64,000 nt of DNA from Oligoflexales bacterium (GCA_947494335.1 CANLUT010000003.1:135381-199380); one strand, 5' to 3'. Counted from the stretch's first letter, positions 3,529-64,000 are shown. Numbers and translations are program-made. The notes: a model not told the origin generated them from the sequence alone.

Positions 3529-3658
3529 AATCCAAGATTTTCTCAATATCGGGAATTTTGAGGCGTCGGATTCCCAAAAGTTAGAAAATATCCTGCATAA
3601 AATTTAATCAAAGTTTGTGATATTGGTCAGTTGCCTTAGTGTGCTCTGCTAGAAAGCC

Positions 3659-3675
3659 TGGTCTAAATTATGCAT
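3659..3675 (+). promoter_or_regulatory. Weak candidate sigma-54 (-24/-12) promoter upstream of the small secreted-protein gene
   Basis: 'TGGtctaaattaTGCAT' has GG-N10-GC spacing (GG 3660-3661, GC 3672-3673), about 58 nt upstream of ATG 3731. Only the core GG/TGC and the flanking T match the TGGCACG-N4-TTGCW consensus. It is the only GG-N10-GC I found in this spacer. Confidence 0.25.
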
Positions 3676-3730
3676 GCATGTTGTTGCACATATAGGATGT
3701 GCGGTTAACCGTTTTAAATTGGAGTTTTTT

Positions 3731-3985
3731 ATGAAATTAGTTCGCGCAATCGTTGCTGTTTCTGCTCTTGCTGCTTCCGCTGCTTTCGCTAGCGAGAAAA
3801 AAGAAGGACATGGCACAACTCCTAACTGCGAAGTTAAGGGCAAAAAGACACACGTTAAGAACGAAGCTGCTTGCAAGAAGAAGAAAGGCACATGGCTAGA
3901 AGCTGCTGCTCCTGCTGCTGATGCTGCTGCTCCTGCTGCTGCTCCTGCTGAAGCTGCTCCAGCTGAAGCTGCTCCAGCTAAGTAA
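3731..3985 (+). CDS. Small secreted protein (84 aa): signal peptide, Lys/Cys-rich core, Ala-Pro-rich tail
   Basis: GGAG lies 6 nt upstream of ATG 3731. Signal peptide 'MKLVRAIVAVSALAASAAFA|SE'. Mature part 'KKEGHGTTPNCEVKGKKTHVKNEAACKKKKGTW' followed by 'AAAPAADAAAPAAAPAEAAPAEAAPAK'. A hairpin terminator follows. Confidence 0.6.
   Translation: MKLVRAIVAVSALAASAAFASEKKEGHGTTPNCEVKGKKTHVKNEAACKKKKGTWLEAAAPAADAAAPAAAPAEAAPAEAAPAK
3899..3982 (+). repeat. Imperfect tandem GCT/CCT/GAA codon repeat (Ala-Pro-Glu low-complexity region)
   Basis: 'gctgctgctcctgctgctgatgctgctgctcctgctgctgctcctgctgaagctgctccagctgaagctgctccagct' is read directly from the sequence. The unit 'gaagctgctccagct' occurs twice in tandem. 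Confidence 0.8.
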
Positions 3986-4024
3986 TTTACCGCTTCGTAA
4001 AGAAGCGAGTAGACTGCTGAAAAG

Positions 4025-4066
4025 CAAAAAAGGGTCATCCGGTAACGGATGGCCCTTTTCAGTTTT
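4025..4066. terminator. Bidirectional rho-independent terminator between the small gene (+) and the RND gene (-)
   Basis: Stem AGGGTCATCCG (4031-4041), loop GTAA, stem CGGATGGCCCT (4046-4056) with one G-U pair. An A-run precedes the 5' side and a T-run follows the 3' side. Confidence 0.75.
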
Positions 4067-4083
4067 GATAATTCGTGGCCTGC

Positions 4084-30597: not shown

Positions 30598-33420
30598 TTA
30601 GTGGGCCTCCAACCAATTCGATCCCGCGCCAACCTCAACTTTAAGCGGAACGGAGAGTTTCATGGCCTGTTCCATGGCGTCGCGGACCAACGCTATAAGG
30701 TTGTCTTTGGCCGATTTGTCACACTCAAAAACCAATTCGTCATGGACTTGCATCAGCATCACGGCGTCCATTCCAGAGTCATCAAGACGATGTTGAATTT
30801 CAATCATGGCAAGTTTAATGAGATCGGCCGCACTTCCCTGAATGGGGCTATTTACTGCCATATTTTCGCCATTAACCATGACAAGCCGTTCCTTGGAGTG
30901 AATCTCCGGAATCGGACGGCGTCGGCCAGTCATGGTCCAGCTATATCCTGTTTCTCTTGTTTTCGCTTTTGCTTGCTCAATGTATTTCCGAATATTTGGA
31001 AATCCTTCAAAATACTTTTCGATGAATGATTTCGCCTCGGCCATGGAGACGCCAGTCTCACGCGCCAATCGCTGTGGACCCATGCCGTAAATAATCCCAA
31101 AGTTAATTGCTTTGGCATTTGAGCGAAGATCCGGGGTTACTTTGTCTGGTGTCACGCCAAAGATGCGGCAAGCAGTCGCCGTGTGAATGTCTAGTCCACT
31201 CGCAAATGCTGACTTGAGGCCTACATCGTCTGCGATGTGGGCTAGCAGTCTTAATTCGATTTGTGAGTAATCGGCAGAAACAATAAGTCGGTTGGGCGAA
31301 GGTGCACTAAATGCCTTTCTAATCTCTCGCCCCTCGTCCTTTCTGATAGGTATATTCTGTAGATTAGGATCGCTGGAACTGAGTCGGCCTGTTGCGGTTC
31401 CTGTTTGATGAAAGTTTGTGTGAATACGCCCGGTCTTTTGACTGATCAGTTGCGGGAGCGTGTCAACATAGGTGTTTTTTAGCTTGGTAACCGTCCGATA
31501 TTCCAAAATTGCGCGCGGGAGAGGATGTTCAGCCATTGACTCGAGGACTGATACATCCGTTGAGTAGCCAGTTTTTGTCTTTTTTAACCGTGTAAGTCCA
31601 AGTTTGGTGTGGATGGCAAGCTTTTCGAAAAGTATTTGCTGAAGCTGCTTGGTGCTATTTATGTTAAATGTTTCACCGGCCTCGCTATAGATAGTTTGTT
31701 CCAGGTCTTTAGCGCGGCGATCCAGCTTGGTTGATATTTCTGCCAAGGCGTCGGCATCGACGTAAACACCGGTTTGTTCCATCTTTCCTATAATTGGTGC
31801 AAGGGGCACTTCGATCGTTGCATAGACCTCATAAAGGTTTTCTTCGTGCAACCGTTTCAGTAAATGATCATTCAGCCTGAGGACAATGTCTGCATCTTCG
31901 CAGGCATACGCCGTTAAATCATCCAGTGGGACGTCGATCATAGGGGTTTGATATTTAGGCCCCATCAATGCGGTGGTGGGTGTTTTTTTGAAGTGGAGCT
32001 GTTCAAGTGCGCAAAAGTCCAGGCCGTGCTCGCGCGACAGTGGATTGATGACATAGCTCGCCAGCATTGTGTCCCCGAATGGTCCGACAACAGGGATGTC
32101 AATATTACTGAGCATCTGAATGTCAAACTTCAAATTATGCGCGATTTTCGTCTTATTTTTATCTGCGAAAATTGGCCTTAGTTGATCTTTGATGAAGTCA
32201 GGTGTTACCCAACCAGTAAGATGGTTGGTGACGAGGGGGATATAATAAGCGGAGCCAGATTTAAACGATACACTTACGCCAATCGGAACATCAGTCGTGC
32301 GGTCCAAACCGGTCGTCTCAGTGTCGAAACTAAACGTAGTACAATCCTTAAGTTGCTGTACAACTTTTAAAATGAGTTCTGCCGTGTTGGCGAGTATGTA
32401 GTCTGATCCAAGTTTGTCTTTGCTGCCATTGTTAGGCAGATCGTTTTTTAAGTTGGAGTTTGTATCTATTTCCTGCTTAGACGAAGGGCTAATAGTAGAT
32501 GATTGGGGTCGGTTACCCCCAGTTAATTTATCTTTGATTTTGGTGGTTAAACCGCGGAATTCAAGCTTGGTAAATAAGTCCAGCAGCTTTTCGTTGGCAA
32601 GAGCGTCATCATTGAGGCGCATTTCTGATTCTAGCACGTCGAGTGGAATGTCAGTTTTAATGGTAACGAGCTCGCGTGACAAAAACGCATTATCTTTGTC
32701 CGCCTGAAGCGCATTTTTCAATTTTGCATTCGATACTTTTTCAATATTCCCGTAGATGCCCTCAAGTGACCCGTACTCGGCAATCAGTTTTGCTGCCCCT
32801 TTGTCTCCGATGCCGTGGACTCCGGGAACATTGTCTGAAGTGTCTCCGATCAGTGCGAGCACTTCAATGACCTGTTCCGGTTTGCAGCCAAATTTGTCAT
32901 GAACACCTTGATGACCAACAAGCAGCGACGGCTCATTTTTTTTGGGAGCGTAGAGGTATACAGTCGAGTTGATGAGCTGCATAAAGTCTTTGTCGCCAGA
33001 GACAATAAAACAGTGCATGTCATCGCGAGCAAATTTTTTGCAAATGGATCCGATTAGATCATCCGCCTCCATTCCAGGCTGTCTTAAAACAGGAATACCC
33101 ATGGCCGAAAACAACTCAAAAAAATACGGTAGCTGATCTGCCAAGTCCTGCGGCATTTCCGAGCGATTCGCTTTGTACTGTGGGTAAATTTCGTGGCGAA
33201 ATGTTTTTTCTTTGCTGTCGGTGGCAACAATCACCAAGTCCGGTTTTTCGTCCTCAATGAGCTTCATCATGAACATTGCGCTGCCGAACACAGCTGACGT
33301 GTGAATTCCACTGGAAGTCATCAGAGGGCGTTGGCCAAATGCATGATAATTACGGAAAGCCATGGCCATGGCATCAATTATGAAAAGTTTCTTCGGAGTT
33401 CCCATCAAATTTGCTTTCAC
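30598..33420 (-). CDS. polA: DNA polymerase I
   Basis: 5' nuclease 'KLFIIDAMAMAFRNYHA'. 3'-5' exonuclease ExoI 'FSFDTETTGLD'. Polymerase motif A 'SADYSQIELRLLAH', motif B 'RSNAKAINFGIIYGM', motif C 'LMQVHDELVFE'. Confidence 0.95.
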   Translation of the reverse strand: MKANLMGTPKKLFIIDAMAMAFRNYHAFGQRPLMTSSGIHTSAVFGSAMFMMKLIEDEKPDLVIVATDSKEKTFRHEIYPQYKANRSEMPQDLADQLPYFFELFSAMGIPVLRQPGMEADDLIGSICKKFARDDMHCFIVSGDKDFMQLINSTVYLYAPKKNEPSLLVGHQGVHDKFGCKPEQVIEVLALIGDTSDNVPGVHGIGDKGAAKLIAEYGSLEGIYGNIEKVSNAKLKNALQADKDNAFLSRELVTIKTDIPLDVLESEMRLNDDALANEKLLDLFTKLEFRGLTTKIKDKLTGGNRPQSSTISPSSKQEIDTNSNLKNDLPNNGSKDKLGSDYILANTAELILKVVQQLKDCTTFSFDTETTGLDRTTDVPIGVSVSFKSGSAYYIPLVTNHLTGWVTPDFIKDQLRPIFADKNKTKIAHNLKFDIQMLSNIDIPVVGPFGDTMLASYVINPLSREHGLDFCALEQLHFKKTPTTALMGPKYQTPMIDVPLDDLTAYACEDADIVLRLNDHLLKRLHEENLYEVYATIEVPLAPIIGKMEQTGVYVDADALAEISTKLDRRAKDLEQTIYSEAGETFNINSTKQLQQILFEKLAIHTKLGLTRLKKTKTGYSTDVSVLESMAEHPLPRAILEYRTVTKLKNTYVDTLPQLISQKTGRIHTNFHQTGTATGRLSSSDPNLQNIPIRKDEGREIRKAFSAPSPNRLIVSADYSQIELRLLAHIADDVGLKSAFASGLDIHTATACRIFGVTPDKVTPDLRSNAKAINFGIIYGMGPQRLARETGVSMAEAKSFIEKYFEGFPNIRKYIEQAKAKTRETGYSWTMTGRRRPIPEIHSKERLVMVNGENMAVNSPIQGSAADLIKLAMIEIQHRLDDSGMDAVMLMQVHDELVFECDKSAKDNLIALVRDAMEQAMKLSVPLKVEVGAGSNWLEAH

Positions 33421-46017: not shown

Positions 46018-47247
46018 TTAGTGCTCGACCCAGTTTAGGTCACGTCCAAAGCTCTCTTTGATGCGCCGAAGAGCGAAAAATCCAATGACAACGCAAACCA
46101 TGCCAACAGTCAAAGCGCTTTGAATGATACCAACGCGCTCTTTCAGAAAGGCAAATGACGTCGTAATGATAACAACGCTTCCGCGGACAAAGTTCGGTAC
46201 CGTTGTAGTTACCGTTGCTCGAAGGTTGGTACCAAATTGTTCTGCGGCAACAGTTACAAAGATCGCCCAGTAGCCTACGGAGCATCCCATCAGAAAACAC
46301 AGAAGATAGTAGTAGGATGGAGGCATGTTCTTAGAGAACAGATATATAATAATCAAGATGGCGCTAGTAATTTGAAAAATCCACAGGGTGAGCTTACGTG
46401 ATTTCAACCACTGACTCACAATGCCGCTACCAATGTCACCGACTACAAGACCAGCGTAGGCCCAAAAAATACCATCACCGGCACTTACCGGTCCCGTAGC
46501 TCCCAAGGCGCTGCAGATTTCCGGTGCAAACGTCACCAAGATGCCGATCACAAACCACAGGGGGATGCCAATAAGAATGCAGTCCATGTAGCGCCCGAAA
46601 CGCTCAAGGTTGTTGAATAACATGGATACATCCCCGCGCCGGATGCCATCATCGCCTTTGACTTGATGGAACATTCCACTTTCCAGCATTTTAACCCGTA
46701 AGATTAAAAGCGTAAGACCGAGTGCGCCGCCGATGATATATGCTGTCTGCCATGAAAAATACTTACCAACAGTCGCAGCGAGCAGTGCTCCAGACACTCC
46801 GACGCCTGCAACTACAGACGTCCCGATGCCGCGACTTTCTTTGGGGAGGCTTTCACTTACAAGCGTGATAGCTGCTCCAAGCTCTCCTGCCAGACCGATT
46901 CCTGCTATAAGGCGAAGCCAAGCATACGTTTCAACATCGGTCACCATGCCGTTAGCAATATTAGCGAGCGAATACATGAGAATAGAGCCAAAAAGTACCG
47001 ATACACGACCAAGTTTATCGCCGAGGATGCCCCAGATAATCCCACCAACCAGCATGCCGGTCATTTGCATGTTAAGAAGTCGAACCCCTACCGGTAGCAG
47101 CTCAGATTCAGCGACTCCGAGATCTCTTAAGCTCGCAACACGGACAATGCTAAATAAAACCAAGTCGTAAATATCAACGAAGTATCCTAAGGCGGAAACG
47201 ATCACTGTGAGATTCAGTACATCTCTTTTCAAGTTTATGTCTTTCAT
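46018..47247 (-). CDS. MFS transporter
   Basis: A 12-TM profile. 'GDKLGRVSVLFGSILMY' matches the loop 2-3 motif G-x3-D-(R/K)-x-G-R. Confidence 0.85.
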   Translation of the reverse strand: MKDINLKRDVLNLTVIVSALGYFVDIYDLVLFSIVRVASLRDLGVAESELLPVGVRLLNMQMTGMLVGGIIWGILGDKLGRVSVLFGSILMYSLANIANGMVTDVETYAWLRLIAGIGLAGELGAAITLVSESLPKESRGIGTSVVAGVGVSGALLAATVGKYFSWQTAYIIGGALGLTLLILRVKMLESGMFHQVKGDDGIRRGDVSMLFNNLERFGRYMDCILIGIPLWFVIGILVTFAPEICSALGATGPVSAGDGIFWAYAGLVVGDIGSGIVSQWLKSRKLTLWIFQITSAILIIIYLFSKNMPPSYYYLLCFLMGCSVGYWAIFVTVAAEQFGTNLRATVTTTVPNFVRGSVVIITTSFAFLKERVGIIQSALTVGMVCVVIGFFALRRIKESFGRDLNWVEH

Positions 47248-47324: not shown

Positions 47325-48425
47325 TCAGAAAGCGGCGTAAGGCATATTAAGCGCTTCTGCGACTGCTTTATGAGTGACCTTACCAGCGTGAGTGTTAAGA
47401 CCTTTGCGCAGCGCTTCACTTTGCTCAAGTGCGCGTGCGAGACCTTTGTTTGCAAGCTCCAGTGCGTATCTGAGAGTGACATTGGTTAGAGCGTAGGTGG
47501 ATGTCTTTGGCACGTCGCCAGGGATGTTGGTTACACCGTAGTGCAACACGCCTTCAGCCTTGTAGACCGGATCGTCGTGAGTTGTAGGCTTGATGGTTTC
47601 AATGCAACCACCCTGGTCTATTGCGACGTCGACAACTACGGAGTCTGGTTCCATATTTGCAACATCTTTGCGACCAACCAACATAGGTGCTTTTGCTCCA
47701 GTTATCAATACAGCGCCGACAACTAAATCAGCTTCGCGAACTGCAGTGGCAACGTTCTCGGGATTCGACATCAGTGTGCTGATATTATTTCCAAAGACAT
47801 CGTCAAGGTAAGCTAGTCTTGCAGCATTAACGTCGAGAATCGTAACACTGGCGCCAAGACCTACAGCCATCTTTGCGGAGTTAATACCAACGACGCCACC
47901 ACCGATAATGACAACGCGTCCACGCTTCACACCTGGCACGCCGCCTAGAAGCAAGCCTTTACCGCCATTATGTTTTTGTAGACACTGAGCGCCAACTTGC
48001 ACGGCCATACGACCAGCAACTTCAGACATCGGTGTCAGCAATGGGAGAGATCCGTTGGAGAGTTCAATGGTCTCATATGCGACTGCGGAAACTTTGCGAT
48101 TCACTAATTCTTTAGCAAGTTCAGGAACAGCGGCAAGGTGCAGGTAGGTATAAAGAATCTGACCATCGCGCATTAGCTTGTACTCGGGCTCGATGGGTTC
48201 TTTAACTTTCATGACCATATCGGCGCGACCCCAAACGTCTTCTTTTGTCTCGACGATTTGAGCTCCAGCAGCGACAAACTTTTCGTCCGGAATGCCAGCC
48301 CCTAGGCCAGCGCCCTTTTGAATAATCACTTTGTGTCCGGCTGCAATAAGTTGGGCCACGCCGCCTGGGACAACGCCGACACGATTTTCACGGTTTTTAA
48401 TTTCCTTAGGTACACCAATAAGCAT
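47325..48425 (-). CDS. ald: Alanine dehydrogenase
   Basis: '[18 protein letters not shown]', NAD-binding '[14 protein letters not shown]', 'YCVANMPG'-like 'HYGVTNIPG'. AGGAAGG Shine-Dalgarno 9 nt before ATG 48425. Confidence 0.9.
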
Positions 48426-48527
48426 GGCTTCCATCCTTCCTGATTGAGGAGGTTAGTTGGTTAAAACAGGCTTGTAGGCTACCAAAAGCCATGTCTCACC
48501 GCAAGAATTCCGAGAGCTTAGGCGACT

Positions 48528-52736: not shown

Positions 52737-53297
52737 TCATTTAAACAGAAGAGAACGATATTGCTTCAACTCTTCAATGCTCTCCTTGATGTCATCGAGG
52801 GCGCGATGTGAGCTTCTTTTCTCAATGAGGCTTGCTAGAGCGGCAGGTTGCCAAATCTTTCCTAAAATTTTGACCGTGCTGACGTCAATCAGTCTATAGT
52901 GAAGATACGCGTCGAGCTGTTTCATATGCTTGGCAATAAAACGACGATCCTGCCAAATGCTGTTACCGCAAAGTGGACTCTCCCGCGGTCCCACGTGTTT
53001 TTTAATAAAATCAACCGTCATGGTCTCTGCCTGTTGTTGAGAGACCGTCGATTTTAGTACTTTATCCCAGAGTCCACTTTTTGTGTGATGCTCTTGATTC
53101 CATGCGTCCATCGACTGGAACATCGATTCGGGTTGGTTGATGACGATCTCAGGACCTTCCGCAACGACGGAAAGATCCGTATCAGTTATGAGCGTTGCCA
53201 TCTCGATAATGACATCACGATCGGGATCTAACCCTGTCATCTCGAGATCCATCCATACAAGTTTAACGGGAGCGTCATTTTTCTTTTTTTCGGTCAC
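52737..53297 (-). CDS. orn: Oligoribonuclease
   Basis: 'LVWMDLEMTGLDPDRDVIIEMATLITD', 'PLCGNSIWQDRRFI', 'YLHYRLIDVSTVK', 'SSHRALDDIKESIEEL'. Colinear with E. coli Orn. Confidence 0.95.
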   Translation of the reverse strand: MTEKKKNDAPVKLVWMDLEMTGLDPDRDVIIEMATLITDTDLSVVAEGPEIVINQPESMFQSMDAWNQEHHTKSGLWDKVLKSTVSQQQAETMTVDFIKKHVGPRESPLCGNSIWQDRRFIAKHMKQLDAYLHYRLIDVSTVKILGKIWQPAALASLIEKRSSHRALDDIKESIEELKQYRSLLFK

Positions 53298-54277: not shown

Positions 54278-55339
54278 ATGAAGCTGACGGCATTGAGATG
54301 TTTGGTTGGTCTTACTGCGATCGTATTAACCGGTCTTGCGCAAGCAGCTGAGCCTGCATTTAAAGTTTATGGCACTGCGGTGACTATGGAAGAGGTCGCA
54401 AAGGAGAAACAGGGCGACTTTTACGAGATCGAAAAGAAAAAATATGAACTAATCGAGAGCATGGCTTTTGAAAAGTACCTCGAGAAGTTTTGGGAAAAGA
54501 AAGCTGCTGACCAGAAAACGACAGTCTCAGAAGCTCGACGTGTGTACATGGAAAAGAATGCCAAAATATCTGAATCAGAAGTGCGGCAGATGGTTGATAA
54601 GTACAAAGACAACCCCCAGTTTGCTAAATTCAGCAAAGACGAACAGCAAAAGCAGGTTCGTGAATTTTTGCGTGATCGCGCGTCTCGAAACATCGAGATG
54701 GACATCATCAAGCAAGGAAAAAAGAGTGGCGATTTGGCGATTTCATTTCCAGAGCCAAAGGAACCTGTTTTTGCGATTGTCTTGAAAGACACAGACCAAA
54801 CTCGTTATGGACCTGGCATGGATGACATCAAACCGCTTGGATGTGAGAGAAAGGCGTGTCCAATTACTATTGTTGAATACAGCGAATTTCAGTGTCCTTT
54901 TTGCTCCAAAGTTATGCCAGCTATCAAGCGTATCTTGACCGAGTATCGTGGCAAGATCAGTTGGACGGTTAGGGACTTCCCGCTGAGCTTTCATGATCGC
55001 GCCCGTCCGGCGGCTGTGGCTGCGCACTGTGCCGGTGACCAAGGAAAGTATTGGGGTATGTACCAAGCTATGTTTGATAACCAAACGGAGCTTCAGGACG
55101 AACATCTCAAGAAGTACGCACTAAAACTTGTGCCAAACAAGCCAAAGTGGGAAGAGTGCTTCAAAAATGCCTCAGCTAAATACGCACTGATCGATGCCAA
55201 TATGGAATCTGGAATGAAAGTTGGTGTGTCGGGAACTCCTGCGTTTTTTATTAATGGCCGGCGTCTCAGTGGGGCCTTGCCATACGAGGAGTTTAAACGG
55301 GTGATTGATGACGAGCTTTCTCGTCGAAAAAAGAGCTAA
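54278..55339 (+). CDS. Periplasmic DsbA-family thiol:disulfide oxidoreductase with an N-terminal helical (SurA-N-like) extension
   Basis: Signal 'LVGLTAIVLTGLAQA|AE'. Thioredoxin-fold active site 'EFQCPFCSK' and 'GVSGTPAFFINGR'. Confidence 0.75.
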   Translation: MKLTALRCLVGLTAIVLTGLAQAAEPAFKVYGTAVTMEEVAKEKQGDFYEIEKKKYELIESMAFEKYLEKFWEKKAADQKTTVSEARRVYMEKNAKISESEVRQMVDKYKDNPQFAKFSKDEQQKQVREFLRDRASRNIEMDIIKQGKKSGDLAISFPEPKEPVFAIVLKDTDQTRYGPGMDDIKPLGCERKACPITIVEYSEFQCPFCSKVMPAIKRILTEYRGKISWTVRDFPLSFHDRARPAAVAAHCAGDQGKYWGMYQAMFDNQTELQDEHLKKYALKLVPNKPKWEECFKNASAKYALIDANMESGMKVGVSGTPAFFINGRRLSGALPYEEFKRVIDDELSRRKKS

Positions 55340-55367
55340 ATTTAGATTGTTTGAACGCAGAGAATTT

Positions 55368-55403
55368 CGGGAGTTTCGCAAGAAGCTCCCGTTTATTTTT
55401 TTA
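55368..55403 (+). terminator. Rho-independent terminator after the DsbA-family gene
   Basis: Stem CGGGAG (55368-55373), 12-nt loop, stem CTCCCG (55386-55391), then 'tttattttttta'. Confidence 0.75.
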
Positions 55404-55546
55404 TTTAATTTTAAATGGTTAGCTGGTTGGCGGGATAGTTAAGGTTGACACTCCATCGTGTCGCTGGCAAAAGGTCCGGACTTCTATGTCTTTTATTTAA
55501 TCAGATGAGTTGCATGCAACTGATCATCGCGATCGAGGTTGGATTG

Positions 55547-56644
55547 ATGAAGTATTTTGAATGCGTGCGTGCCGTTGCGGCATGGTCCACTGGATGTGTG
55601 ATGTTTTTCAGTGCCTTTGCAGGGGACAGTCGGGCCTGCACGACCTTCAAGTTTTCGACCGAGGGACGTTCTTTTGTTGCAAAAAACTATGATTGGGACA
55701 AAGAGCAGGGGATGATTTACGTCAATAAACGTGGGGTTTCCAAACAATCTCTAAAAGTTTTTGCCAATGATCAGATCCTTGAGTGGACATCAAAATTTGG
55801 AAGTCTAACTTTCAATCAATATGGACGCGAGTTGCCCAATGCGGGAATGAACGAGGCAGGTCTCGTGGTTGAAGTGATGGAGCTTGGAACATCACGATTT
55901 GAAACAGCCGGTGCCAAGTCATCAGTTAACGAAAGTCAGTGGGTTCAATTCATGTTGGATAATGCCGCATCCGTTGAGGATGTGAAAGCTTTGTCCAAAA
56001 ATATCAGGATTTCGAAGATCCTTGTGCCATTACACTATATGGTTTGTGACAGCGACGGGAGCTGCGCTGCTTTTGAAAGTTTAAACGGCCGGCTTCTAAT
56101 AACAGACCAGATTCAACCTGGCACCGCAGTTCTGACAAATCACACATATGCCGAGTCTATGACATACCTTCGACAGTTTTCAGGTTTTGGTGGCTCAAGA
56201 AATCCTCCGGATGGAGATGGGTCTCTTGAACGATTTGCTCGTGCCGCTACGTTTGTAAAAAATTCGCAGTTGGCCCTAGTCTCATCTTTTGATGTTGGAG
56301 ACGGTTTTGAAGGCTTGAGTGCGGTTCAAACGGCAATCACCCAATGGAGTATCGTTTATGATTTGGGACGCCGTCAGATCGCTTTCAAATCTCGTTCGTC
56401 AAGGGCATTAAAAAGCGTGCAATTGAATAATTTCGACCTTGGTTGTTCCAGTCCTGTGATGGGCTTTCCGATCATTTCGCGGGACTCAGGCGACGTTTCA
56501 ACAATGTTTAGGCCCTACAGTGATCAGCTGAATCGGCAGTTGGTTGAGAAATCGCTCGCGGGCGATGTGCCTCGTCAGCTCATCGAGGCCGCGGCGAATC
56601 TTCCTGGTTCCACTCAGTGTGTTTCGTCGATGGATGCTAATTAA
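55547..56644 (+). CDS. Secreted Ntn hydrolase, choloylglycine hydrolase / linear amide C-N hydrolase family
   Basis: Signal peptide ending 'AFAGDSRA|CTTFKF', placing a Cys at the mature N-terminus as in this family. 'AKNYDWD' follows. ATG 55547 is preferred over 55445. Confidence 0.65.
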   Translation: MKYFECVRAVAAWSTGCVMFFSAFAGDSRACTTFKFSTEGRSFVAKNYDWDKEQGMIYVNKRGVSKQSLKVFANDQILEWTSKFGSLTFNQYGRELPNAGMNEAGLVVEVMELGTSRFETAGAKSSVNESQWVQFMLDNAASVEDVKALSKNIRISKILVPLHYMVCDSDGSCAAFESLNGRLLITDQIQPGTAVLTNHTYAESMTYLRQFSGFGGSRNPPDGDGSLERFARAATFVKNSQLALVSSFDVGDGFEGLSAVQTAITQWSIVYDLGRRQIAFKSRSSRALKSVQLNNFDLGCSSPVMGFPIISRDSGDVSTMFRPYSDQLNRQLVEKSLAGDVPRQLIEAAANLPGSTQCVSSMDAN

Positions 56645-57947
56645 ATAGGTCGATGATTGCTTTTACACTTCGGTTTATTGATTGCTCGGCTTGGTCGCTG
56701 GCGGGCTGGATGACCCCCGAAATTCCGTCAGAGACCCGATCACCGATAATTGATTTTTGAATAGCTTCGAGAGGATTGAAAGGTCGTACATTGCGTTTTG
56801 TGTCGATCGTTTTCCATCCAAATGTGTAGGTTTTTACCATGATTGGAAGCTCTGACGAGCTGGCATCGACGGTAAGTGTTTTTAAGTCAATTCCTAACGA
56901 CGAAATCATCATTTTAAATTGATTCAGGCTCAGCGCAGATGCGAACGCCTTTTTGTACCAGCTACCTGTCATAACGGCGTTGATTGTGGGGATCGTTTCG
57001 AGTTTTGGTATGCATGAGTCTCCCGTGCATACCACACTTTTCATGGTTGATGGGTCAAGCGGTCCAAAACTGACCTGAATAATGGCAGGTTGGGAGCTTC
57101 CTCCCAATGAGCTATAAGTGCGCTGTGTGGATAACTGCAGGATGTCTGCGTTTTCTTTCTTTGGCTGATAAATTACAGATTCAATTGAAATTTCGTCCAT
57201 GGTTTCTTTTGGAATTGAAAAGCCAACAGGAATCATGCTGACCTGGAAATTTGTTTTGATTGTCTTCGTTCGGTCGATGGTGATTTGAGCCTTGAAATAT
57301 AATGGTAGCCATGCACCTTGATTCAAGTCTCTAAGTTGGCTGTAGGCGGATTTTGACTCGGCCGCCAGCGAATCTATTCCTCCTAGAATTTCCGTTTCGC
57401 GAGCAGTCTCTAGGCCCATCAGTTGCGAGCCTAGTTGAATGGCAAACGGATTGATGGCATTTGAGTCTTTATTGGGTGAAGGACTCAGGATCTTAAAAAG
57501 CATTCCCACGATACTGCTGTTGATTGGAAGGACTTTCGATCCAAAGGTTCGAGTTGTCCAATAAAACTGAATGGCGTTGTCTGCGTTGTCCGTAGTTGGT
57601 GCCTTCAAGAGGTGGTGAATGCTACGAATGCGGTTTGCCATCATCAAATCCATATTTAATAGCATTTTTCGAAGCGAGCTAATTGGTCCTGGAGTTGCGG
57701 ACCCAGAATACCCAAATGATTTGTCAGTTCCGTAGAATTGCTGGCCCAAGGTTTTTAACGAGCTTTCCCGTATGGCAGATGAGAAATTTTCAACAAGGAT
57801 TTTTCGAGTTTCCGGGTCTAGGTATCCTGATTTTGATGTAATCAATACAGGGTGCAAATTTTTCGTTGACTGTGCAATGGCAACGCGAGGAAGCCACAAC
57901 CCGAGGATCGTACTGGCAATTATAAAATTTAGCCGCTTTCTATTCAT
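56637..57947 (-). CDS. Hypothetical secreted protein (436 aa)
   Basis: Signal 'LNFIIASTILGLWLPRVAIA|QS'. No recognisable family. The start overlaps the upstream gene's stop codon by 4 nt. Confidence 0.5.
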   Translation of the reverse strand: MNRKRLNFIIASTILGLWLPRVAIAQSTKNLHPVLITSKSGYLDPETRKILVENFSSAIRESSLKTLGQQFYGTDKSFGYSGSATPGPISSLRKMLLNMDLMMANRIRSIHHLLKAPTTDNADNAIQFYWTTRTFGSKVLPINSSIVGMLFKILSPSPNKDSNAINPFAIQLGSQLMGLETARETEILGGIDSLAAESKSAYSQLRDLNQGAWLPLYFKAQITIDRTKTIKTNFQVSMIPVGFSIPKETMDEISIESVIYQPKKENADILQLSTQRTYSSLGGSSQPAIIQVSFGPLDPSTMKSVVCTGDSCIPKLETIPTINAVMTGSWYKKAFASALSLNQFKMMISSLGIDLKTLTVDASSSELPIMVKTYTFGWKTIDTKRNVRPFNPLEAIQKSIIGDRVSDGISGVIQPASDQAEQSINRSVKAIIDLFN

Positions 57948-59416
57948 TGAATCCCCATGCGAGTTGAAGCGGAATCTAAAATAGCATCTACTATGGCCGT
58001 GCGAGGTAGGTTTGCTGCTGGTGCGGATTCAAGCGCATCTAATCTTCTAGAGAATCCCAAGGCCATGTGATCTAGCGCTAAAACGCCGAGAAGGCTTGCC
58101 TTTGCTCCCTTGGGTACAACATCAACGGGCAGAACAGAGTGTTCCAATGCAACACAGGAGTCACTGATCGGGTGGCGCCGGAAATTTATGATCGAAGTGA
58201 GCTGACCCATATGAGTTAGATCCTGGGTCCCAGATTGGATCACAATATTTCCATCACTATCGGTGCTGAGTAAAGGGAACGCCTCTAGCTTTGCAACATC
58301 GAGAGCCGCCGCAACGTGAAAAATCGGAAAATCTCTGGTGCCTGTCATCGGATCAGGCTCGCTTCGGGAAAGATCCCAGCTTTTGACCTTTTCGAATAGA
58401 AAATTTTTTCTTTGACTTGGTAGAAGTGAGCGAATCCCAGCTCTCACTGTTTCAAACTCTGGTCCCGTGTACATAGGTAATATTTTTTGAGCTACGGAGG
58501 CGCTATTTCCTAAAGACGCGCCAGCACCGAATGAGAGCATCGTTCCCAGGAGACCTCGGTTAAACTCGGTCATCTCGCTTCGATTTTTCGCTAAAGACTC
58601 CACCAGAGGGTGAATCATGACCATCGGTAGCCCGCCACCAAATGGCGATCCTACGGTAATGAGCGCAAGAGTGCGTTCTCTGATATCGGGAAAGCTCGCC
58701 AGCGCCTGCAGCATGCTGGTACCCCCTTTGGAGTAGCCCCAGAATAAGTAGCGATGCTCCTTGGTTTTGGTGGCTTCAAGTTCCATAAACTTCGTGTGGA
58801 TTTTCGGAGCGCACTCATCGTCGGTTGCAAAGGAGTTAGGCTGACATTCGTGCCGAAGTATACGTAAGTCACCCCTTTTTATGTCTTCGGCAAACGCTTT
58901 GCTCCACAGATCTCTGCTGTCATATAACGCTCCAGATTCGGTCAAATGACTACCGAAACCGCCAGCCATTATAAAGGTCAGACCAAGGTTCTTTTGTCTG
59001 GCAGCAGATAGCAGTTTTCGCATCCCGGTTAATTCTGATTCCGCAGATTTTTTTGACTGAGGAGCGCACTGAGCTATACGACTCCCCGGATTAAACAGTT
59101 GCTCCAGTAAAAATTCGTATGGATAGGGAGATTGATAGGTCCCAGTAACTGTTTTTTTCAATGATCCTGACGCTGGTAAAATAACAAGCTCAGCTGCTGC
59201 TTTGCAATCAATTCTTGAAGACAGTGCTTTCAGAAGCAAATTGTCGGTTTCGTACTGAAAATCTCTCAAAGAAATAACGTCCTGCTCGTCACCAGCAAGG
59301 CTTGACCCTGCGGTCCGCCGCTTGGCAGCAGTCTTACAATTTGAGAGAACAACCGCAAAAAAAAGTGCTGCCAAAATGACTCTGGAGCGAAAGCGTATGA
59401 AGGATAATGGTGTCAT
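57944..59416 (-). CDS. Hypothetical secreted protein or lipoprotein, alpha/beta-hydrolase (lipase)-like
   Basis: Signal 'VILAALFFAVVLSNC' (atypical lipobox). Nucleophile-elbow-like 'LFWGYSKGGTSML', preceded by 'FIMAGGFGSH' (oxyanion-like). Confidence 0.5.
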   Translation of the reverse strand: MTPLSFIRFRSRVILAALFFAVVLSNCKTAAKRRTAGSSLAGDEQDVISLRDFQYETDNLLLKALSSRIDCKAAAELVILPASGSLKKTVTGTYQSPYPYEFLLEQLFNPGSRIAQCAPQSKKSAESELTGMRKLLSAARQKNLGLTFIMAGGFGSHLTESGALYDSRDLWSKAFAEDIKRGDLRILRHECQPNSFATDDECAPKIHTKFMELEATKTKEHRYLFWGYSKGGTSMLQALASFPDIRERTLALITVGSPFGGGLPMVMIHPLVESLAKNRSEMTEFNRGLLGTMLSFGAGASLGNSASVAQKILPMYTGPEFETVRAGIRSLLPSQRKNFLFEKVKSWDLSRSEPDPMTGTRDFPIFHVAAALDVAKLEAFPLLSTDSDGNIVIQSGTQDLTHMGQLTSIINFRRHPISDSCVALEHSVLPVDVVPKGAKASLLGVLALDHMALGFSRRLDALESAPAANLPRTAIVDAILDSASTRMGIQ

Positions 59417-59708
59417 GGTGACGCTCTTGTTGCTGCAAAAAAGTACCCCACCGCAGTCTCTATTGACAAAAAATAACCGTGGAGCTGTCTGATCGCCTTA
59501 ATTTTATCATATCCGGTAAGGGTGGCGTGGAGTCTGATGGAGGATAAAAGATGCCTAACAGCTGTTCGTTTGGGACTAAGTCCAAGGTCATTATTTTTTT
59601 AACTCACCAAAATTGCAGAATATTTTAAGTTTTTTCTTAAGTTTGCCATCGTTGCTCCGACACCCCTCTTGTAGGCGGTGACGGGGAATCACTATTAGGG
59701 GTTTATCG

Positions 59709-60110
59709 ATGTCAGAAGGTCGGCGCGAAAATAGAAAAATGGTTAGGTTGATCCTTGATCATCCGCTCAAGGTGTCAATTGGCTCCCTAGGCGCTGAGGT
59801 CCGCTATGATCTTAAAACTCGCAACGTGTCATATACTGGTTTTTTTCTTGATTTTGAAAAGCCAGGACGATTTCCTTTCACTCCAGCCTCGATCATGGAG
59901 ATCTGGATTGATCTCGAACCAAATAACCGTATTTTCTTTAACGGAAAAATGGTGCGAAAAGTTATGCCTGGCGATCCTGGTTCCGAGATTACAGGCCCAG
60001 GTATTGCTGTTCGAATTATTCAGATGGATTCTAAAACCGAGCATCAGCTCAAAGAATTCATCGACCGGAAAATTTCTGAAAAAAACTCCAATGCGATCAA
60101 GTCAGCATAA
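59709..60110 (+). CDS. PilZ-domain (c-di-GMP-binding) protein
   Basis: N-terminal 'RRENR' (RxxxR) and 'NVSYTG' ((D/N)xSxxG) about 30 residues later. Size is 133 aa. Confidence 0.75.
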   Translation: MSEGRRENRKMVRLILDHPLKVSIGSLGAEVRYDLKTRNVSYTGFFLDFEKPGRFPFTPASIMEIWIDLEPNNRIFFNGKMVRKVMPGDPGSEITGPGIAVRIIQMDSKTEHQLKEFIDRKISEKNSNAIKSA

Positions 60111-60163
60111 TCGTCTTTAGGCCTGCAGGCTTGCGCTGATATGAATGCACTTTCAATGATAAA

Positions 60164-60733
60164 TTAATAGCGGGGCTCGTGTCCCGGCTTCCATTTGATA
60201 TTGCACCCAAGGCTAGGTTTTTGCTCAGATGGTAGTCTCGTATTTGTCAGCAAAGCGTCGAGCGCTAACCTAAGGTCTTTCCCCGTGACTGGAATTTGAT
60301 TGGATGGACGACTGTCGTCCAGCTGACCTCGATAGACCAAGCGATGACTTCTATCAAAAAGAAAGATGTCCGGGGTGCAAGCAGCTTTAAAGGCTTTCGC
60401 TACATCTTGCGTTTCGTCAAAAAGATAGGGGAATACATAGCCTGCTTTTACTTTCTCAATTTTCATTTTTTCAGGCGAGTCATCTGGATGGCTTATGACA
60501 TCGTTGCTGTTTATTGCGACTATTCCAATTCCTTTTGATGTGTAATCGCGACCAAGTGCAGCAAGCTGATCACGGATGTGGATCACAAAAGGACAGTGAT
60601 TACAAATGAACAATACAAGTAACGGCTTACCATGGAAATCTTGGCTGCTGACCTTGTTGCCGTCGGTATCGGGAAGGCAAAAGCTGGGTGCCGAGGTACC
60701 TAATTCGAGCATATATGATGGAGTGCGTGCCAT
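60164..60733 (-). CDS. Thioredoxin-fold protein (TlpA/AhpC-TSA-like, CxxC)
   Basis: 'GKPLLVLFICNHCPFV' active-site region. ATG 60733 (MARTPSYML...) has a GGGAGA Shine-Dalgarno. The ORF track starts at TTG 60793. Confidence 0.75.
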   Translation of the reverse strand: MARTPSYMLELGTSAPSFCLPDTDGNKVSSQDFHGKPLLVLFICNHCPFVIHIRDQLAALGRDYTSKGIGIVAINSNDVISHPDDSPEKMKIEKVKAGYVFPYLFDETQDVAKAFKAACTPDIFLFDRSHRLVYRGQLDDSRPSNQIPVTGKDLRLALDALLTNTRLPSEQKPSLGCNIKWKPGHEPRY

Positions 60734-60789
60734 TGTTGGTTCTCCCGCGCGAGGTTCGACTCCGGTTGTGTCACAAAGATACGGGTAGG

Positions 60790-61575
60790 TCAATCCGGGA
60801 TCACGATTTCCATGCCATCATAAGCGAGCTCTACACCGGCAGGTAGCTTGGCCGTTTCAACGTCGTAATCAATCTCGTGATTCATGTGGGTTATAATTCC
60901 TCGTTCAACGTCGAGCTTACGGAACAGATCAATGGTTTCGCCAATTGTCGAGTGGGTTTTGTGATCTCGCCATCTGAGACCGCTGGCGACCATCGTGTGA
61001 ACTTTACCGCGCCATGCTCTAATGATGTTGTCACCGAGAGTCTTAAAGTCTGTTGCATAAGCAAAGCGTCCAAAACGAAATACATTCGTAAAGGTGTTGC
61101 CATGGGGCGCGAGAAACGTCTCGACCTCAAGGCCAGCAATTTGGGTCACGCCTTGGTTCGCGGGGAGTGGGCATAGTTTCAAGTTTGGTCGTCCACCCAG
61201 ATACCCAGTGTCTTCAAAAGCGTAGTGGAATCTTAGTTTTAATTCCTGGATGAGATCGGGGTGTAGCCAACACTCTATTTGTTTTTGACTGTTGAAATAA
61301 AGTCCACGTAGATCATCAAAGCCATGGCAGTGATCAGCATGAAGGTGACTGTATATAACATGTTGAAGTGATGAGATGCCTGCTCTCAAGGCCTGGAGTC
61401 GAAACTCCGGTCCTGTGTCGATCACAATTGGTACTTGATTAGGACCCCATACTGCGATTGACGCGCGCCATCTTTGATTGCGCGGATTGGTACTTTGACA
61501 AACAGCACAAGAACACCCCAATACAGGAACGCCTGTAGAGGTGCCGCAACCCATAATCTTGACTAAATACGTCAT
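60790..61575 (-). CDS. MBL-fold metallo-hydrolase, PhnP-like
   Basis: 'IMGCGTSTGVPVLGCSCAVCQS' (Cys-rich N-terminus as in the PhnP family) and 'SHLHADHCHGFDDL' (HxHxDH). Confidence 0.8.
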   Translation of the reverse strand: MTYLVKIMGCGTSTGVPVLGCSCAVCQSTNPRNQRWRASIAVWGPNQVPIVIDTGPEFRLQALRAGISSLQHVIYSHLHADHCHGFDDLRGLYFNSQKQIECWLHPDLIQELKLRFHYAFEDTGYLGGRPNLKLCPLPANQGVTQIAGLEVETFLAPHGNTFTNVFRFGRFAYATDFKTLGDNIIRAWRGKVHTMVASGLRWRDHKTHSTIGETIDLFRKLDVERGIITHMNHEIDYDVETAKLPAGVELAYDGMEIVIPD

Positions 61576-61584
61576 AGTTTGATT

Positions 61585-63099
61585 TTAAGATCGTATGAGA
61601 CTTCTCAGAAGGCGGGCACGATCACCCTCTTTTGAGGTAAAATCTCGCATTTTATCCAGTCTTGTTACGTGATCGATTTTTCTAAGTGGGTACTCGTGCC
61701 AAAAATTAGCCTCTTCCTCTTGGGATACCGAGAAGGCGACGTGGTCGATACCTGTATCCTGATCCGGCAACCTTTCTAGAAGACCCTCACGGAACATGAC
61801 CTGTAGACATTGGGACACGTCTTCATCTGGATAAGGGGTGGCCATCTTGATGTGAGCACTCAATGTTTCCAGCGATACAGCGGACTTGCTTCCAAACACA
61901 TCCTTTACACCCTGGAAACAAGCACGCATCAATAATGCATCTGGATAGCTTTTATCAATGGAGAAACGATGGTGAAAGTAGTCTTTTTCTCCGCAGATTA
62001 CGACAGTGCGAATAAAGCCAGAATCTTCAACTCCAAAAATTTCACGAGCCAAGGTTTCGGTGCTGTCCGTCATGCCGTTAAAAATCACAAATTCAACGTA
62101 TCGAGTGTTTTCAATTTCACTCAGAAATGGCCCAATTGATATAACAATGCGAACGTCTCCCGTTTCAAACTGCTGCCGGGCTTTGTTGGCTGAAAAATCA
62201 TCTGTTCCAGGTCGGATAATGGCGAATTCTTCGCCTTTTTTTTCCAATAATTCGGCAGTATCGTAAAGCTGTTTGATGGAATTGCAATAAATCACGCCTT
62301 GGCCAGGTGAGCGGTTAAGCTCTAAATCGAGAATATTCAGCCGATCTAAGTCGTTTGTTGCCGGGATACACTCCACTCCAAATCCTGGGACGGTCTCAGG
62401 AGAGAGTCGTCCTTGGAATGGTTCGTTTAGACATAATAGTTTAGTGAGGTCGTGTGTGACTCTAGCACTAGGGTTCCATACGATCGCAATTTTTTGGGGG
62501 CGCTTTATTTGGCTTTGTAAAGAGGCCAAAAAACTTCCAACAAATCTGTAGTTGGGTAAAAACTTATGTGACCAAGGGCTCATAAGCTGTGCCTGGTCAA
62601 TGATCACTATGCCAATGTCACGACGACGAAGCCGTTCACGGAATCTTTGACTCGACAGTCGACCAGGGGTAACCAGAAGAATTTGGACGTCTCCGTGATC
62701 CATCCTGTCCCAAATGATCTTTTTTTCAGCTTTGGTCGGTGCCAGGTCAAAAGACTCCGAGTTTATATTCAGAGCACAGAAACGCGCCTTCATCCGTCGA
62801 ATACTTTGAATGGAGTGCGTGACCACAAGGACCAGGCCGCAGCCGGCGGCAGCTGGTAAAGCTGCACAGGTGATCGAGGCCAGACGATCAGGCCCGCTGA
62901 CAATAATGTCTCGGCCCTTACCAAGATGTTCAATAACTTCAAGGTTTTCAGAGGATACGTAGGTAAGTCCAGGTATGCTGGTGGACGCATCCACAAGTCG
63001 ACCGAGGATATCCTGCCCTCGAGAGGAGCTATCCAAACTTTCGGCACTGTAGCTGGCATCGCCAGGAGAACAGCTTGCTGCGTTAAGGTCCATGCTCAT
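61585..63099 (-). CDS. RecQ-like protein with degenerate helicase motifs (probable pseudo-helicase)
   Basis: 'IIDQAQLMSPWSHKFLPNY' corresponds to RecQ 'VDEAHCISQWGHDFRPEY'. 'GVIYCNSIKQ' corresponds to 'GIIYCNSR'. The Walker A position reads 'SGPDRLAS', motif VI reads 'LAREIFGVEDSG', and there is no Zn-binding Cys cluster. Confidence 0.65.
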   Translation of the reverse strand: MSMDLNAASCSPGDASYSAESLDSSSRGQDILGRLVDASTSIPGLTYVSSENLEVIEHLGKGRDIIVSGPDRLASITCAALPAAAGCGLVLVVTHSIQSIRRMKARFCALNINSESFDLAPTKAEKKIIWDRMDHGDVQILLVTPGRLSSQRFRERLRRRDIGIVIIDQAQLMSPWSHKFLPNYRFVGSFLASLQSQIKRPQKIAIVWNPSARVTHDLTKLLCLNEPFQGRLSPETVPGFGVECIPATNDLDRLNILDLELNRSPGQGVIYCNSIKQLYDTAELLEKKGEEFAIIRPGTDDFSANKARQQFETGDVRIVISIGPFLSEIENTRYVEFVIFNGMTDSTETLAREIFGVEDSGFIRTVVICGEKDYFHHRFSIDKSYPDALLMRACFQGVKDVFGSKSAVSLETLSAHIKMATPYPDEDVSQCLQVMFREGLLERLPDQDTGIDHVAFSVSQEEEANFWHEYPLRKIDHVTRLDKMRDFTSKEGDRARLLRSLIRS

Positions 63100-63212
63100 A
63101 CAATGATTGTACTGTGATTTCGAAGAAAACTGGTAATTTTTTTTTATTTTTTTAGTAAATCACACAACACATCCTATTATTCTTGGGCTTTGTTTTATGG
63201 GATTGCTCTTTA

Positions 63213-64000
63213 ATGGCTTCGATTTCAAGTACAAGCGGTAAGTTGGTCATTCAAAAATATGGCGGGACCTCAGTGGGCTCGATCGACCGTATTAAGCACG
63301 TGGCTGCCCATATAGCCGACACGGTCAGGCGGGGTGAGCAGGTGGTTGCCGTAATTAGTGCCATGGGCGATCAGACCGACGACTTGCTGGCTATGGCTCA
63401 TGCAATTTCCAAGACCCCTCCTCGCAGGGAGCTGGATATGCTTTTGACCGCTGGCGAGCGTATTGCAATGGCGCTGGTCACGATTGCTCTGAATGAAATT
63501 GGACAAAAAGCTGTCTCGCTGACTGGTTCTCAAAGCGGCATTATCACAGATACAGTCCATGGGAACGCAAGGATCAGTCGGGTTGGGCCTCATCGAATTG
63601 AAGAAAATTTAAAGCTCGGAAATGTGGTTATCGTAGCTGGGTTTCAGGGCGTTAGCGCTGAATCAAAAGAAATTACAACTTTAGGTCGAGGTGGTAGTGA
63701 TCTGAGCGCCATTGCCTTGGCTGCAACATTGAAAGCTAGGACTTGTCAGCTATATAAGGATGTCGATGGCGTTTGTTCGGCGGATCCCAGAGTCGTCACG
63801 AGTCCACTGGTCCATAAAACTCTAACGTGGGACACAATGACCCAGATGGCATGGGCTGGCGCTTCGGTGTTGCATCCGCGCGGCGCCCATCTTGCACAGA
63901 AATTCAGTATTCCGATAGAGATTCGGAGTAGTTTCAATTTAAACCTACCAGGAACACTGGTTAGCGGGAGCGAAAAGATGGAGTCATATGCTGTACAGGC
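63213..64000 (+). CDS. lysC: Aspartate kinase, N-terminal part (3' end outside the window)
   Basis: The frame is open from ATG 63213 to the window end. It translates to 'MASISSTSGKLVIQKYGGTSVGSIDRIKHVA...VVAVISAMGDQTDDLL...TTLGRGGSDLSAIALA...LYKDVDGVCSADPR'. It is absent from the ORF track only because no stop codon lies in the window. Confidence 0.9.
   Translation, partial: MASISSTSGKLVIQKYGGTSVGSIDRIKHVAAHIADTVRRGEQVVAVISAMGDQTDDLLAMAHAISKTPPRRELDMLLTAGERIAMALVTIALNEIGQKAVSLTGSQSGIITDTVHGNARISRVGPHRIEENLKLGNVVIVAGFQGVSAESKEITTLGRGGSDLSAIALAATLKARTCQLYKDVDGVCSADPRVVTSPLVHKTLTWDTMTQMAWAGASVLHPRGAHLAQKFSIPIEIRSSFNLNLPGTLVSGSEKMESYAVQ

Follow-up and report, generated by a model that had tools for sequence, protein, structure and literature searches.

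A RecQ-family protein without its ATPase motifs, very probably motor-dead, encoded beside a metallo-hydrolase gene in an uncultured Oligoflexales clade

The window analysed here is a stretch of 64,000 nucleotides (nt) from an Oligoflexales bacterium (GCA_947494335.1, CANLUT010000003.1:135381-199380). Toward its 3′ end lies a minus-strand gene for a 504-amino-acid (aa) protein that follows the RecQ helicases in sequence and predicted fold and has none of their ATPase motifs; it is called pRecQ (pseudo-RecQ) below. A gene for a metallo-beta-lactamase (MBL)-fold hydrolase and one for a thioredoxin-fold protein (redoxin) follow on the same strand. An earlier, sequence-only reading of this DNA had described these three minus-strand open reading frames (ORFs), all of which were found where it placed them, and had quoted strings that are likewise present: SGPDRLAS (nt 62875-62898), DQAQ (nt 62587-62598), VVTHSIQSI, MSPWSHKFLPNY, GVIYCNSIK, and TLAREIFGVEDSG. 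The genes and intergenic features at this end of the window are:

61585..63099, minus strand: pRecQ gene, 504 aa; predicted RecQ fold, all ATPase motifs lost
60790..61575, minus strand: MBL-fold metallo-hydrolase gene, 261 aa, with HLHADH and an N-terminal CxCxxC
60164..60793, minus strand: thioredoxin-fold (redoxin) ORF, 209 aa counted from a TTG; preferred gene 60164-60733
63100..63212, no strand assigned: spacer between the divergent pRecQ and aspartate kinase genes, 113 nt, AT-rich, with a clade-conserved promoter-like element
63213..64000, plus strand: 5′ part of the aspartate kinase gene (aspK), recognised from its translation; divergent from pRecQ and used as a positional marker
59709-60110, plus strand: PilZ-domain gene, just past the redoxin ORF

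The RecQ derivation of the 504-aa product, proposed in the sequence-only reading, is upheld by profile, sequence, and fold searches. The top NCBIfam models are all for recQ (TIGR01389, E 3e-26; PRK11057; TIGR00614), with scores well below the curated cut-offs (91.9 vs 640.2 bits for TIGR01389, 71 vs 219.8 bits for TIGR00614); in Pfam, DEAD and Helicase_C are matched at sub-threshold level only. The closest relatives by sequence in the PDB are the bacterial RecQ cores 4TMU and 1OYW (E ~1e-20). An AlphaFold2 model made from 39 sequences has a predicted local distance difference test (pLDDT) score of 87.4 and a predicted template modelling (pTM) score of 0.84, with disorder confined to residues 1-28, and all of its top 50 Foldseek matches in the PDB belong to the RecQ family (WRN, RecQ, RECQ1, RECQL5, BLM; E to 3e-21, TM ~0.6). 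For the Escherichia coli and C. sakazakii cores (1OYW, 4TMU) the Foldseek E values are 6e-19 to 8e-20, at TM 0.62. We are confident from the model that pRecQ keeps a RecQ-type fold: two RecA-like lobes, then a C-terminal region that is helical and, by prediction, winged-helix-like. Secondary-structure order and the alignment suggest that the predicted winged-helix-like segment is an insertion into the former zinc subdomain, between its helices.

A search of 5.8 billion proteins found 36 members of the same family, 98% to 40% identical and nearly all 496-529 aa long, below which the score falls to genuine RecQs at E ~1e-8. They are referred to here as the dead family or dead clade. The 36 were aligned with 73 active relatives for motif comparison; a 19-sequence alignment of dead members was also used. 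In the alignment to E. coli and C. sakazakii RecQ (E 1e-20), SGPDRLAS stands opposite PTGGGKS, GVIYCNS opposite GIIYCNS, and IDQAQLMSPWSHKFLPNY opposite VDEAHCISQWGHDFRPEY. Lost and retained motifs, in RecQ order, are:

Motif 0 (dead clade): Gln of the active form, lost
62875..62898, minus strand: Walker A/motif I, PTGxGKS replaced by SGPDRLAS (Lys to Leu, Ser/Thr to Ala)
Motif Ia (window protein): SPLI of active forms reads THSI
62629..62670, minus strand: motif Ib region, retained, TPGRLSSQRFRERL; P145, R147, and F153 invariant in dead and active proteins
62587..62598, minus strand: motif II, DEAH replaced by DQAQ
62545..62583, minus strand: aromatic-rich loop, retained, MSPWSHKFLPNYR; pattern W..F.P.YR
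Motif III (window protein): TATAT of active forms reads VWNPS
Motif V (window protein): FGMGI of active forms reads FLSEI
62017..62055, minus strand: motif VI, QEiGRAGRDG replaced by TLAREIFGVEDSG; arginine fingers replaced, partly by acidic residues
61939..61989, minus strand: subfamily signature EKDYFHHRFSIDKSYPD; active short RecQs carry RDYYIQKFMIDKSYP
61678..61704, minus strand: C-terminal signature FWHEYPLRK, invariant in the dead clade; YPLRK also in several active short RecQs

The claim that every catalytic motif is ablated thus holds for Walker A, DEAH, and motif VI, and extends to motifs 0, III, and V. The losses are common to all dead-family members, and the residues that replace the motifs drift: G.GK[ST] occurs in none of them, motif II reads DQAQ, DQAH, NQAQ, LQAH, MHGQ, LNAH, or LHAE, and motif VI, REIFGVEDSG in the window protein, has the consensus “Elf..eda” over the 36. 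From these replacements we infer that pRecQ no longer hydrolyses ATP. What is kept includes motif Ib, as (S/T)P(E/G)RL..FR; a motif-IV-like GxGVIY; and the C-terminal signatures DY..+F.IDKsYPD and YPLRK...L..M. Five residues, R147, F153, W176, F180, and P182, are invariant across the dead, short active, and canonical RecQs. The last three lie in the aromatic-rich loop, which in RecQ makes direct contact with single-stranded DNA (PMC5175346), and because of this combination pRecQ may well still bind nucleic acid. Compared with the E. coli and C. sakazakii enzymes, then, pRecQ shares motif Ib and the aromatic-rich loop, and differs in having no ATPase motifs, no four-Cys zinc site, and no HRDC domain.

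The sequence-only reading had counted the missing four-Cys zinc cluster among the signs of inactivation. The cluster is indeed absent, but not as part of the decay: PF16124 is matched neither by pRecQ nor by its active short sisters (described below), and because those helicases do without it too, its absence is better seen as an ancestral trait. Two cysteines are invariant in the dead clade. C394, in the sequence RAC, lies in the helix that follows IDKxYPD, at a position that, judging by the alignment, roughly matches the first zinc-site Cys of canonical RecQ; C431, in the sequence QC, lies in the predicted recognition helix of the winged-helix-like segment.

Conservation of the family argues that the gene is retained rather than decaying, as had been suspected from the intact ORF. 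Homologues of about 500 aa share the GKS and DEAH losses throughout the clade, which speaks against decay in a single strain, and 70 columns elsewhere in the alignment are invariant among members down to 37% identity. The nearest relative, encoded by a Lake Mendota metagenome-assembled genome (MAG; L001), is 98% identical to the window protein; the two genes differ by 46 synonymous and 9 non-synonymous changes, for a ratio of non-synonymous to synonymous divergence (dN/dS) of 0.053, alongside 0.035 (MBL gene) and 0.10 (redoxin gene) in the same comparison. This ratio is usable for that pair only, more distant pairs being saturated at synonymous sites (pS, the proportion of synonymous differences, 0.76-0.90); in these the pRecQ dN is 0.13-0.31, close to that of the MBL gene. 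Purifying selection on pRecQ is about as strong as on its enzyme neighbour. The family is also sharply bounded. A profile search of 1.84 billion representative proteins was followed through its best 150 matches, 142 of them newly retrieved; among these 142, only two full-length dead-family members and three fragments lack Walker A, DExH, and motif VI together. The three short fragments match the dead-family C-terminus; in other partial sequences one or two of the motifs are missing. After the dead family, the best match is P0283 (287 bits), which is fully active. Taking motifs, fold, and selection together, we consider it very likely that pRecQ is a selected, motor-dead RecQ orthologue. Several sources annotate dead-family proteins as “ATP-dependent DNA helicase RecQ” or “DEAD/DEAH box helicase”; as statements of catalytic function these are almost certainly wrong.

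The origin of the dead clade can be approached through its position. In other Oligoflexia the same slot holds a 483-523-aa RecQ-family helicase with every motif intact: in the cultured Pseudobacteriovorax antillogorgiicola (L016), in an Oligoflexus sp. assembly (L017), and in several MAGs (L014/L015, L018, L021). The L014 protein, for example, has PTGSGKS, DEAH, LTATLT, FGMGI, and QEIGRAGRDG, and passes TIGR00614 at 348 bits against a cut-off of 220. These active short RecQs (~485 aa) already lack the zinc-cluster and HRDC domains. Those of P. antillogorgiicola (P0191, 483 aa) and Oligoflexus sp. (P0189) resemble pRecQ in slot and length, are collinear with it throughout, and share the F.IDKsYP and YPLRK...L..M signatures; they differ in their intact PTGxGKS, DEAH, TATAT, FGMGI, and QEiGRAGRDG motifs and in passing the profile on which pRecQ scores 71 bits, and pRecQ is 22-34% identical to the group. 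The arrangement aspK, divergent from X, with X followed by MBL, has an active X in L014/L015, L016, and L017 and a dead X in the window, in L022, and on the P0081 contig; in L018 the active X and its MBL gene stand next to the dnaX block.

In a neighbor-joining tree, which is a distance tree with no bootstrap, the dead clade is monophyletic (19 of 19 sequences) and nested within the short-RecQ clade, on a stem of ~1.02 substitutions per site; its sister is P0215, an active short RecQ, and the active P0283 branches next. At equal divergence of the neighbouring MBL (~51% identity), active helicases are 46% identical to one another and dead to active 27%. These comparisons show pRecQ as the descendant of a short, zinc-cluster-less RecQ-family helicase that, from its motifs, would have been fully active. 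Since active enzymes occupy the same slot between aspK and MBL, the simplest reading is that pRecQ is a positional orthologue turned pseudo-enzyme and not an added paralogue, as the sequence-only reading had called it. On this reading, a single inactivation event in the ancestral slot would have been followed by a burst of divergence and then by renewed constraint. Motifs 0, I, II, III, V, and VI would have been removed in one uncultured freshwater Oligoflexales clade, with the two-lobe fold, motif Ib, the aromatic-rich loop, the C-terminal region, the length, and the gene position all preserved.

The gene's nearest companion is the MBL gene. Its ATG lies 9 nt past the pRecQ TAA, in the same frame, and the window protein reads HLHADH at its HxHxDH motif, as first described; that motif is intact in all loci compared. 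The description of pRecQ as packed against an MBL gene turns out to hold well beyond the window. A RecQ-like gene followed on the same strand by the MBL gene, at 7-48 nt or overlapping (L018), is found at 12 of 12 dead loci and 7 of 7 active ones (L014-L018, L020, and L021; 7-33 nt or overlapping). The pair is intact at L020, whose flanking genes bear no relation to the Oligoflexia block; at L021 several genes have been inserted between aspK and the helicase gene and the pair is kept. Judged from this gene order, the pairing is old. In the dead clade, the spacer between the two genes has a length divisible by three (9, 36, or 48 nt) at 9 of 13 loci. As these are not phylogenetically independent of one another, the pattern may be without meaning.

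The MBL protein matches Pfam PF12706 (96 bits) and belongs to a very large family (2727 hits at E<1e-20). Its nearest NCBIfam models are NF038231, the “GPMC system” MBL (230.7 bits, cut-off 360), and PRK02113 (182.8, cut-off 386), both missed, and the closest solved structures, 6B9V (E 1.5e-45) and 3PY5/3MD7, are of uncharacterised “beta-lactamase-like” proteins. It had been called PhnP-like. Identity with PhnP (TIGR03307) was rejected, the score being 68.2 bits against a cut-off of 272 and phn context being absent: no phn genes occur among the 45 window ORFs scanned with Pfam (those of at least 150 aa, plus PilZ). With the PhnP, PRK02113, and “GPMC-system” families it has in common an HxHxDH MBL fold; it differs from them in falling under every curated cut-off and in having no phn neighbours. 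The N-terminal CxCxxC presumably resembles the structural metal site of PhnP. Characterised distant relatives of the protein (PhnP, RNase Z, and Apyc1-type enzymes) all cleave phosphodiesters.

Upstream of pRecQ, a promoter-like element is conserved at 12 of 12 dead-clade loci (L001-L011 and L022; in the window at 63100-63145, upstream on the minus strand). It consists of an A-tract, then ATTACCAG, ~18-19 nt, and a −10-like TACAAT, TACACT, or TAGAAT, followed after 6-7 nt by the pRecQ ATG. In the window it reads A-tract, TTACCA, ~19 nt, TACAAT, 6 nt, ATG. The element is unrecognisable upstream of the active orthologues. With its −10 box this near the start codon, the pRecQ mRNA would be leaderless or nearly so.

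These observations suggest a motor-dead RecQ orthologue that would still bind nucleic acid, without ATP, as a non-catalytic binding or scaffolding protein, and that most likely acts with the MBL protein; we put the probability of this combined reading at about 0.6. pRecQ would be co-expressed with the downstream phosphodiesterase- or nuclease-like enzyme and act with it: of an ancestral helicase/hydrolase pair, the half that recognises or recruits would have been kept and the motor half given up. It is the conserved gene order that points to pRecQ as a DNA-binding partner of the MBL protein, and the specific proposal that the two work together on nucleic acid we hold somewhat short of even odds. 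A still more tentative extension, unlikely as things stand, is that the short RecQ and MBL proteins of Oligoflexia form a two-protein helicase/phosphodiesterase (nuclease) module in which the freshwater-clade RecQ would serve as an ATP-independent substrate-recognition or clamp subunit for the MBL enzyme. Several results weigh against the combined reading. The MBL gene does not need a RecQ-like gene, occurring without one in L012/L013 and L019; no RecQ-MBL fusion was found among 302 retrieved helicase-like proteins; the pairing is confined to one class/phylum, and shared ancestry explains part of it. The resemblance of the MBL protein to PhnP, RNase Z, and Apyc1 is at superfamily level only. 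A scan of 59400-63400 for sigma-70 promoters and intrinsic terminators gave fewer sites than shuffled sequence or no more, and says nothing about operon boundaries; the conserved promoter-like element was missed by this consensus scanner because of its 19-nt spacer.

Some of the same facts suit a functional dead RecQ that has nothing to do with the MBL protein, acting alone, for instance in binding DNA structures, in regulation, or as a partner of replication or repair proteins, next to a gene whose adjacency is frozen ancestral order. The whole block, from dnaX through aspK and the RecQ-like and MBL genes to alanine dehydrogenase (AlaDH), is syntenic across Oligoflexia, so that vertical inheritance alone could hold neighbours together, and the solitary MBL genes and the lack of fusions fit as well. 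A mere relic, however, would not obviously keep its 7-48-nt spacing or overlap while AlaDH moved 12.4 kb away in the window, nor survive the insertions at L021 and the wholly different flanks at L020; we regard this explanation as improbable, though one to be taken seriously. Like some pseudokinases, pRecQ might still use nucleotide at a site of non-canonical type and so remain a motor or switch, an idea hinted at by the near-invariance of D168 in the former motif II and the invariance within the clade of G69 in the former P-loop. Against this, the P-loop Lys and Ser/Thr, the catalytic Glu, motifs III and V, and both motif VI arginines have been replaced together, and replacements as varied as DQAQ, LQAH, MHGQ, and LNAH are not expected of a working active site, which leaves the idea very unlikely.

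The redoxin gene could be brought in as well, to make a three-component, perhaps redox-controlled system of pRecQ, MBL, and CxxC thioredoxin-fold protein. The trio stands in this order at 10 of 11 loci, and C394 and C431 would offer invariant cysteines. But the MBL and redoxin genes are separated in L022, L011, L003, and the P0081 contig, AlaDH takes the redoxin position in active lineages, and the redoxin comes from a widespread stand-alone family and has its own Shine-Dalgarno (SD)-like site after a 56-nt gap; little weight can be given to such a system. Least credible, and hardly worth retaining, is the view of pRecQ as a pseudogene in decay or a product of faulty annotation. A dying enzyme gene would indeed be expected to lose all its catalytic motifs, but not to show an intact ~500-aa ORF in ~36 clusters reaching 37% identity, a dN/dS of 0.05, a dN like that of a neighbouring enzyme, a confident AlphaFold2 model, and a conserved upstream promoter-like element. 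The preferred reading remains that of a binding or scaffolding protein acting with the MBL enzyme. A defence role of the Dpd (DpdF) or PsyrTA type was also considered and rejected: the PADLOC hits of pRecQ (E 1e-27 to 1e-22) reflect generic RecQ similarity, the active homologue from the same slot reaching E 1e-124; the MBL, redoxin, and PilZ proteins have no PADLOC hits, and the genes found on either side are of ordinary chromosomal kinds, not defence partners.

RecQ helicases are central to genome maintenance, and what they do apart from catalysis is commonly studied in K→A or E→Q mutants made for the purpose. In the present clade a natural, very probably motor-dead RecQ orthologue has persisted until synonymous sites saturated, with members down to 37% identity. 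An active, ancestor-like form exists in cultured relatives and the same partner gene stands beside both forms, which offers a clean comparison of what a RecQ scaffold does without ATP. If the two-protein module proposed above were true, it would amount to a natural separation-of-function experiment in which the essential contribution of RecQ is binding and recruitment, not unwinding. Apart from this, the locus draws attention to an unstudied pairing of short RecQ and MBL hydrolase in Bdellovibrionota.

Pseudo-enzymes, pseudohelicases among them, are a known phenomenon; what appears to be new is a bacterial pseudo-RecQ paired with an MBL gene, in a family limited to one uncultured clade. In full-text literature searches neither a bacterial dead RecQ nor a RecQ/MBL pairing was met with. 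The best functional analogy is Deinococcus radiodurans PriA, a bacterial superfamily 2 (SF2) pseudohelicase with degenerate motifs that has no ATPase or unwinding activity and keeps its binding to DNA and DnaB (PMC4504706); there too the motifs degenerated in one lineage and the gene was kept. PriA differs in belonging to another SF2 family and in being biochemically proven, where pRecQ is known from sequence and has a conserved enzyme-gene partner. As far as the searched literature shows, pRecQ would be a second bacterial SF2 pseudohelicase after PriA, the only one so far characterised. Utp25/Def, a eukaryotic DEAD-box-like pseudohelicase of the small-subunit processome, is reported to keep the SF2 fold as a non-catalytic assembly factor (PMC9539457), much as proposed for pRecQ; it differs in being eukaryotic, of the RNA-helicase lineage, and unrelated in sequence.

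The thioredoxin-fold gene encodes a protein of the AhpC/TSA-Redoxin family (PF00578, 67.5 bits against a threshold of 26) with a CNHC motif; its PDB relatives include 2ywi (E 2e-66), 3u5r, and 2cvb. Two starts had been offered for it, one about 56 nt after the MBL gene and one, at TTG 60793, overlapping it by 4 nt. ATG 60733, with the 56-nt gap, is most likely from the sequence: homologue alignments begin at residues 17-20 of the longer ORF and a GGGAG lies 8 nt before this ATG, and the TTG start was set aside on these grounds.

The sequence-only reading had asked whether the trio might be syntenic in related genomes. For pRecQ and MBL this is so, and pRecQ, MBL, and redoxin stand in order at 10 of 11 Oligoflexales genome loci; as a unit member the redoxin does not hold up. 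It adjoins the MBL gene in the dead clade only, every active lineage having AlaDH there, and in L022, L011, L003, and the P0081 contig a major facilitator superfamily (MFS) gene or other DNA (~2 kb) parts the two. From this gene order the thioredoxin-fold gene is probably not part of the pRecQ/MBL unit, and it and the PilZ gene are best seen as neighbours and not components. The window's own AlaDH orthologue (75-79% identical) lies at 47328-48434 on the same strand, 12.4 kb further downstream, and because of this the redoxin/PilZ/DsbA/RNase-T block looks like a lineage-specific insertion or rearrangement of the dead clade. Between the MBL and AlaDH genes are those for DUF3025, RNase_T-type exonuclease, and DsbA-like proteins, three unknown ORFs, and the PilZ and redoxin genes; an MFS transporter gene (46018-47247, minus strand) stands beside AlaDH. 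In L011 the MFS gene (3451-4633) aligns to the L022 homologue as two overlapping segments read in different frames, a frameshift that is either a pseudogene or an assembly error.

All 11 genome loci encoding the dead family are in MAGs of or near Oligoflexales (Bdellovibrionota), mostly freshwater. Four of them (L004, L005, L007, L011) have pRecQ/MBL/redoxin/PilZ blocks 48-79% identical to the window and are named “Pseudobacteriovorax antillogorgiicola,” “uncultured Polynucleobacter sp.,” and “Bdellovibrio sp. ZAP7.” As species names these seem doubtful, because the cultured P. antillogorgiicola genome holds an active helicase instead. The kinase used as a positional marker is identified in L014 by an NCBIfam match to aspartate kinase, and AA_kinase is found upstream in dead and active loci alike. 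Further out, Oligoflexia have dnaX followed by three conserved ORFs (~192, ~155, and ~271-304 aa) ahead of aspK and the RecQ-like and MBL genes (L014 1232-3143; L016 1712-3688; L017 1628-3598; L018 3030-4946), none of the three with a Pfam or NCBIfam hit. In many bacteria ybaB-recR stands after dnaX.

Elsewhere in the window, other DNA-metabolism genes are those for a RecD2-type SF1 helicase (18893-21163, minus strand; OB_YrrC, HHH_RecD2, AAA_30, SH3_13, UvrD_C_2), DNA polymerase I (30598-33420, minus strand), and an RNase_T/DnaQ-type exonuclease (52737-53297, minus strand); there is no canonical RecQ among the 45 scanned ORFs, and an Rfam scan of 55000-64000 matched no RNA family. Two minus-strand ORFs, 57944-59416 (490 aa) and 56637-57947 (436 aa), share 4 nt at their junction and lack any significant match in Pfam. 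Both are kept in L001 (91-96%) and L004 (64-67%). The 490-aa protein begins like a signal peptide or lipoprotein and carries a serine-hydrolase-like GYSKG (GxSxG) motif.

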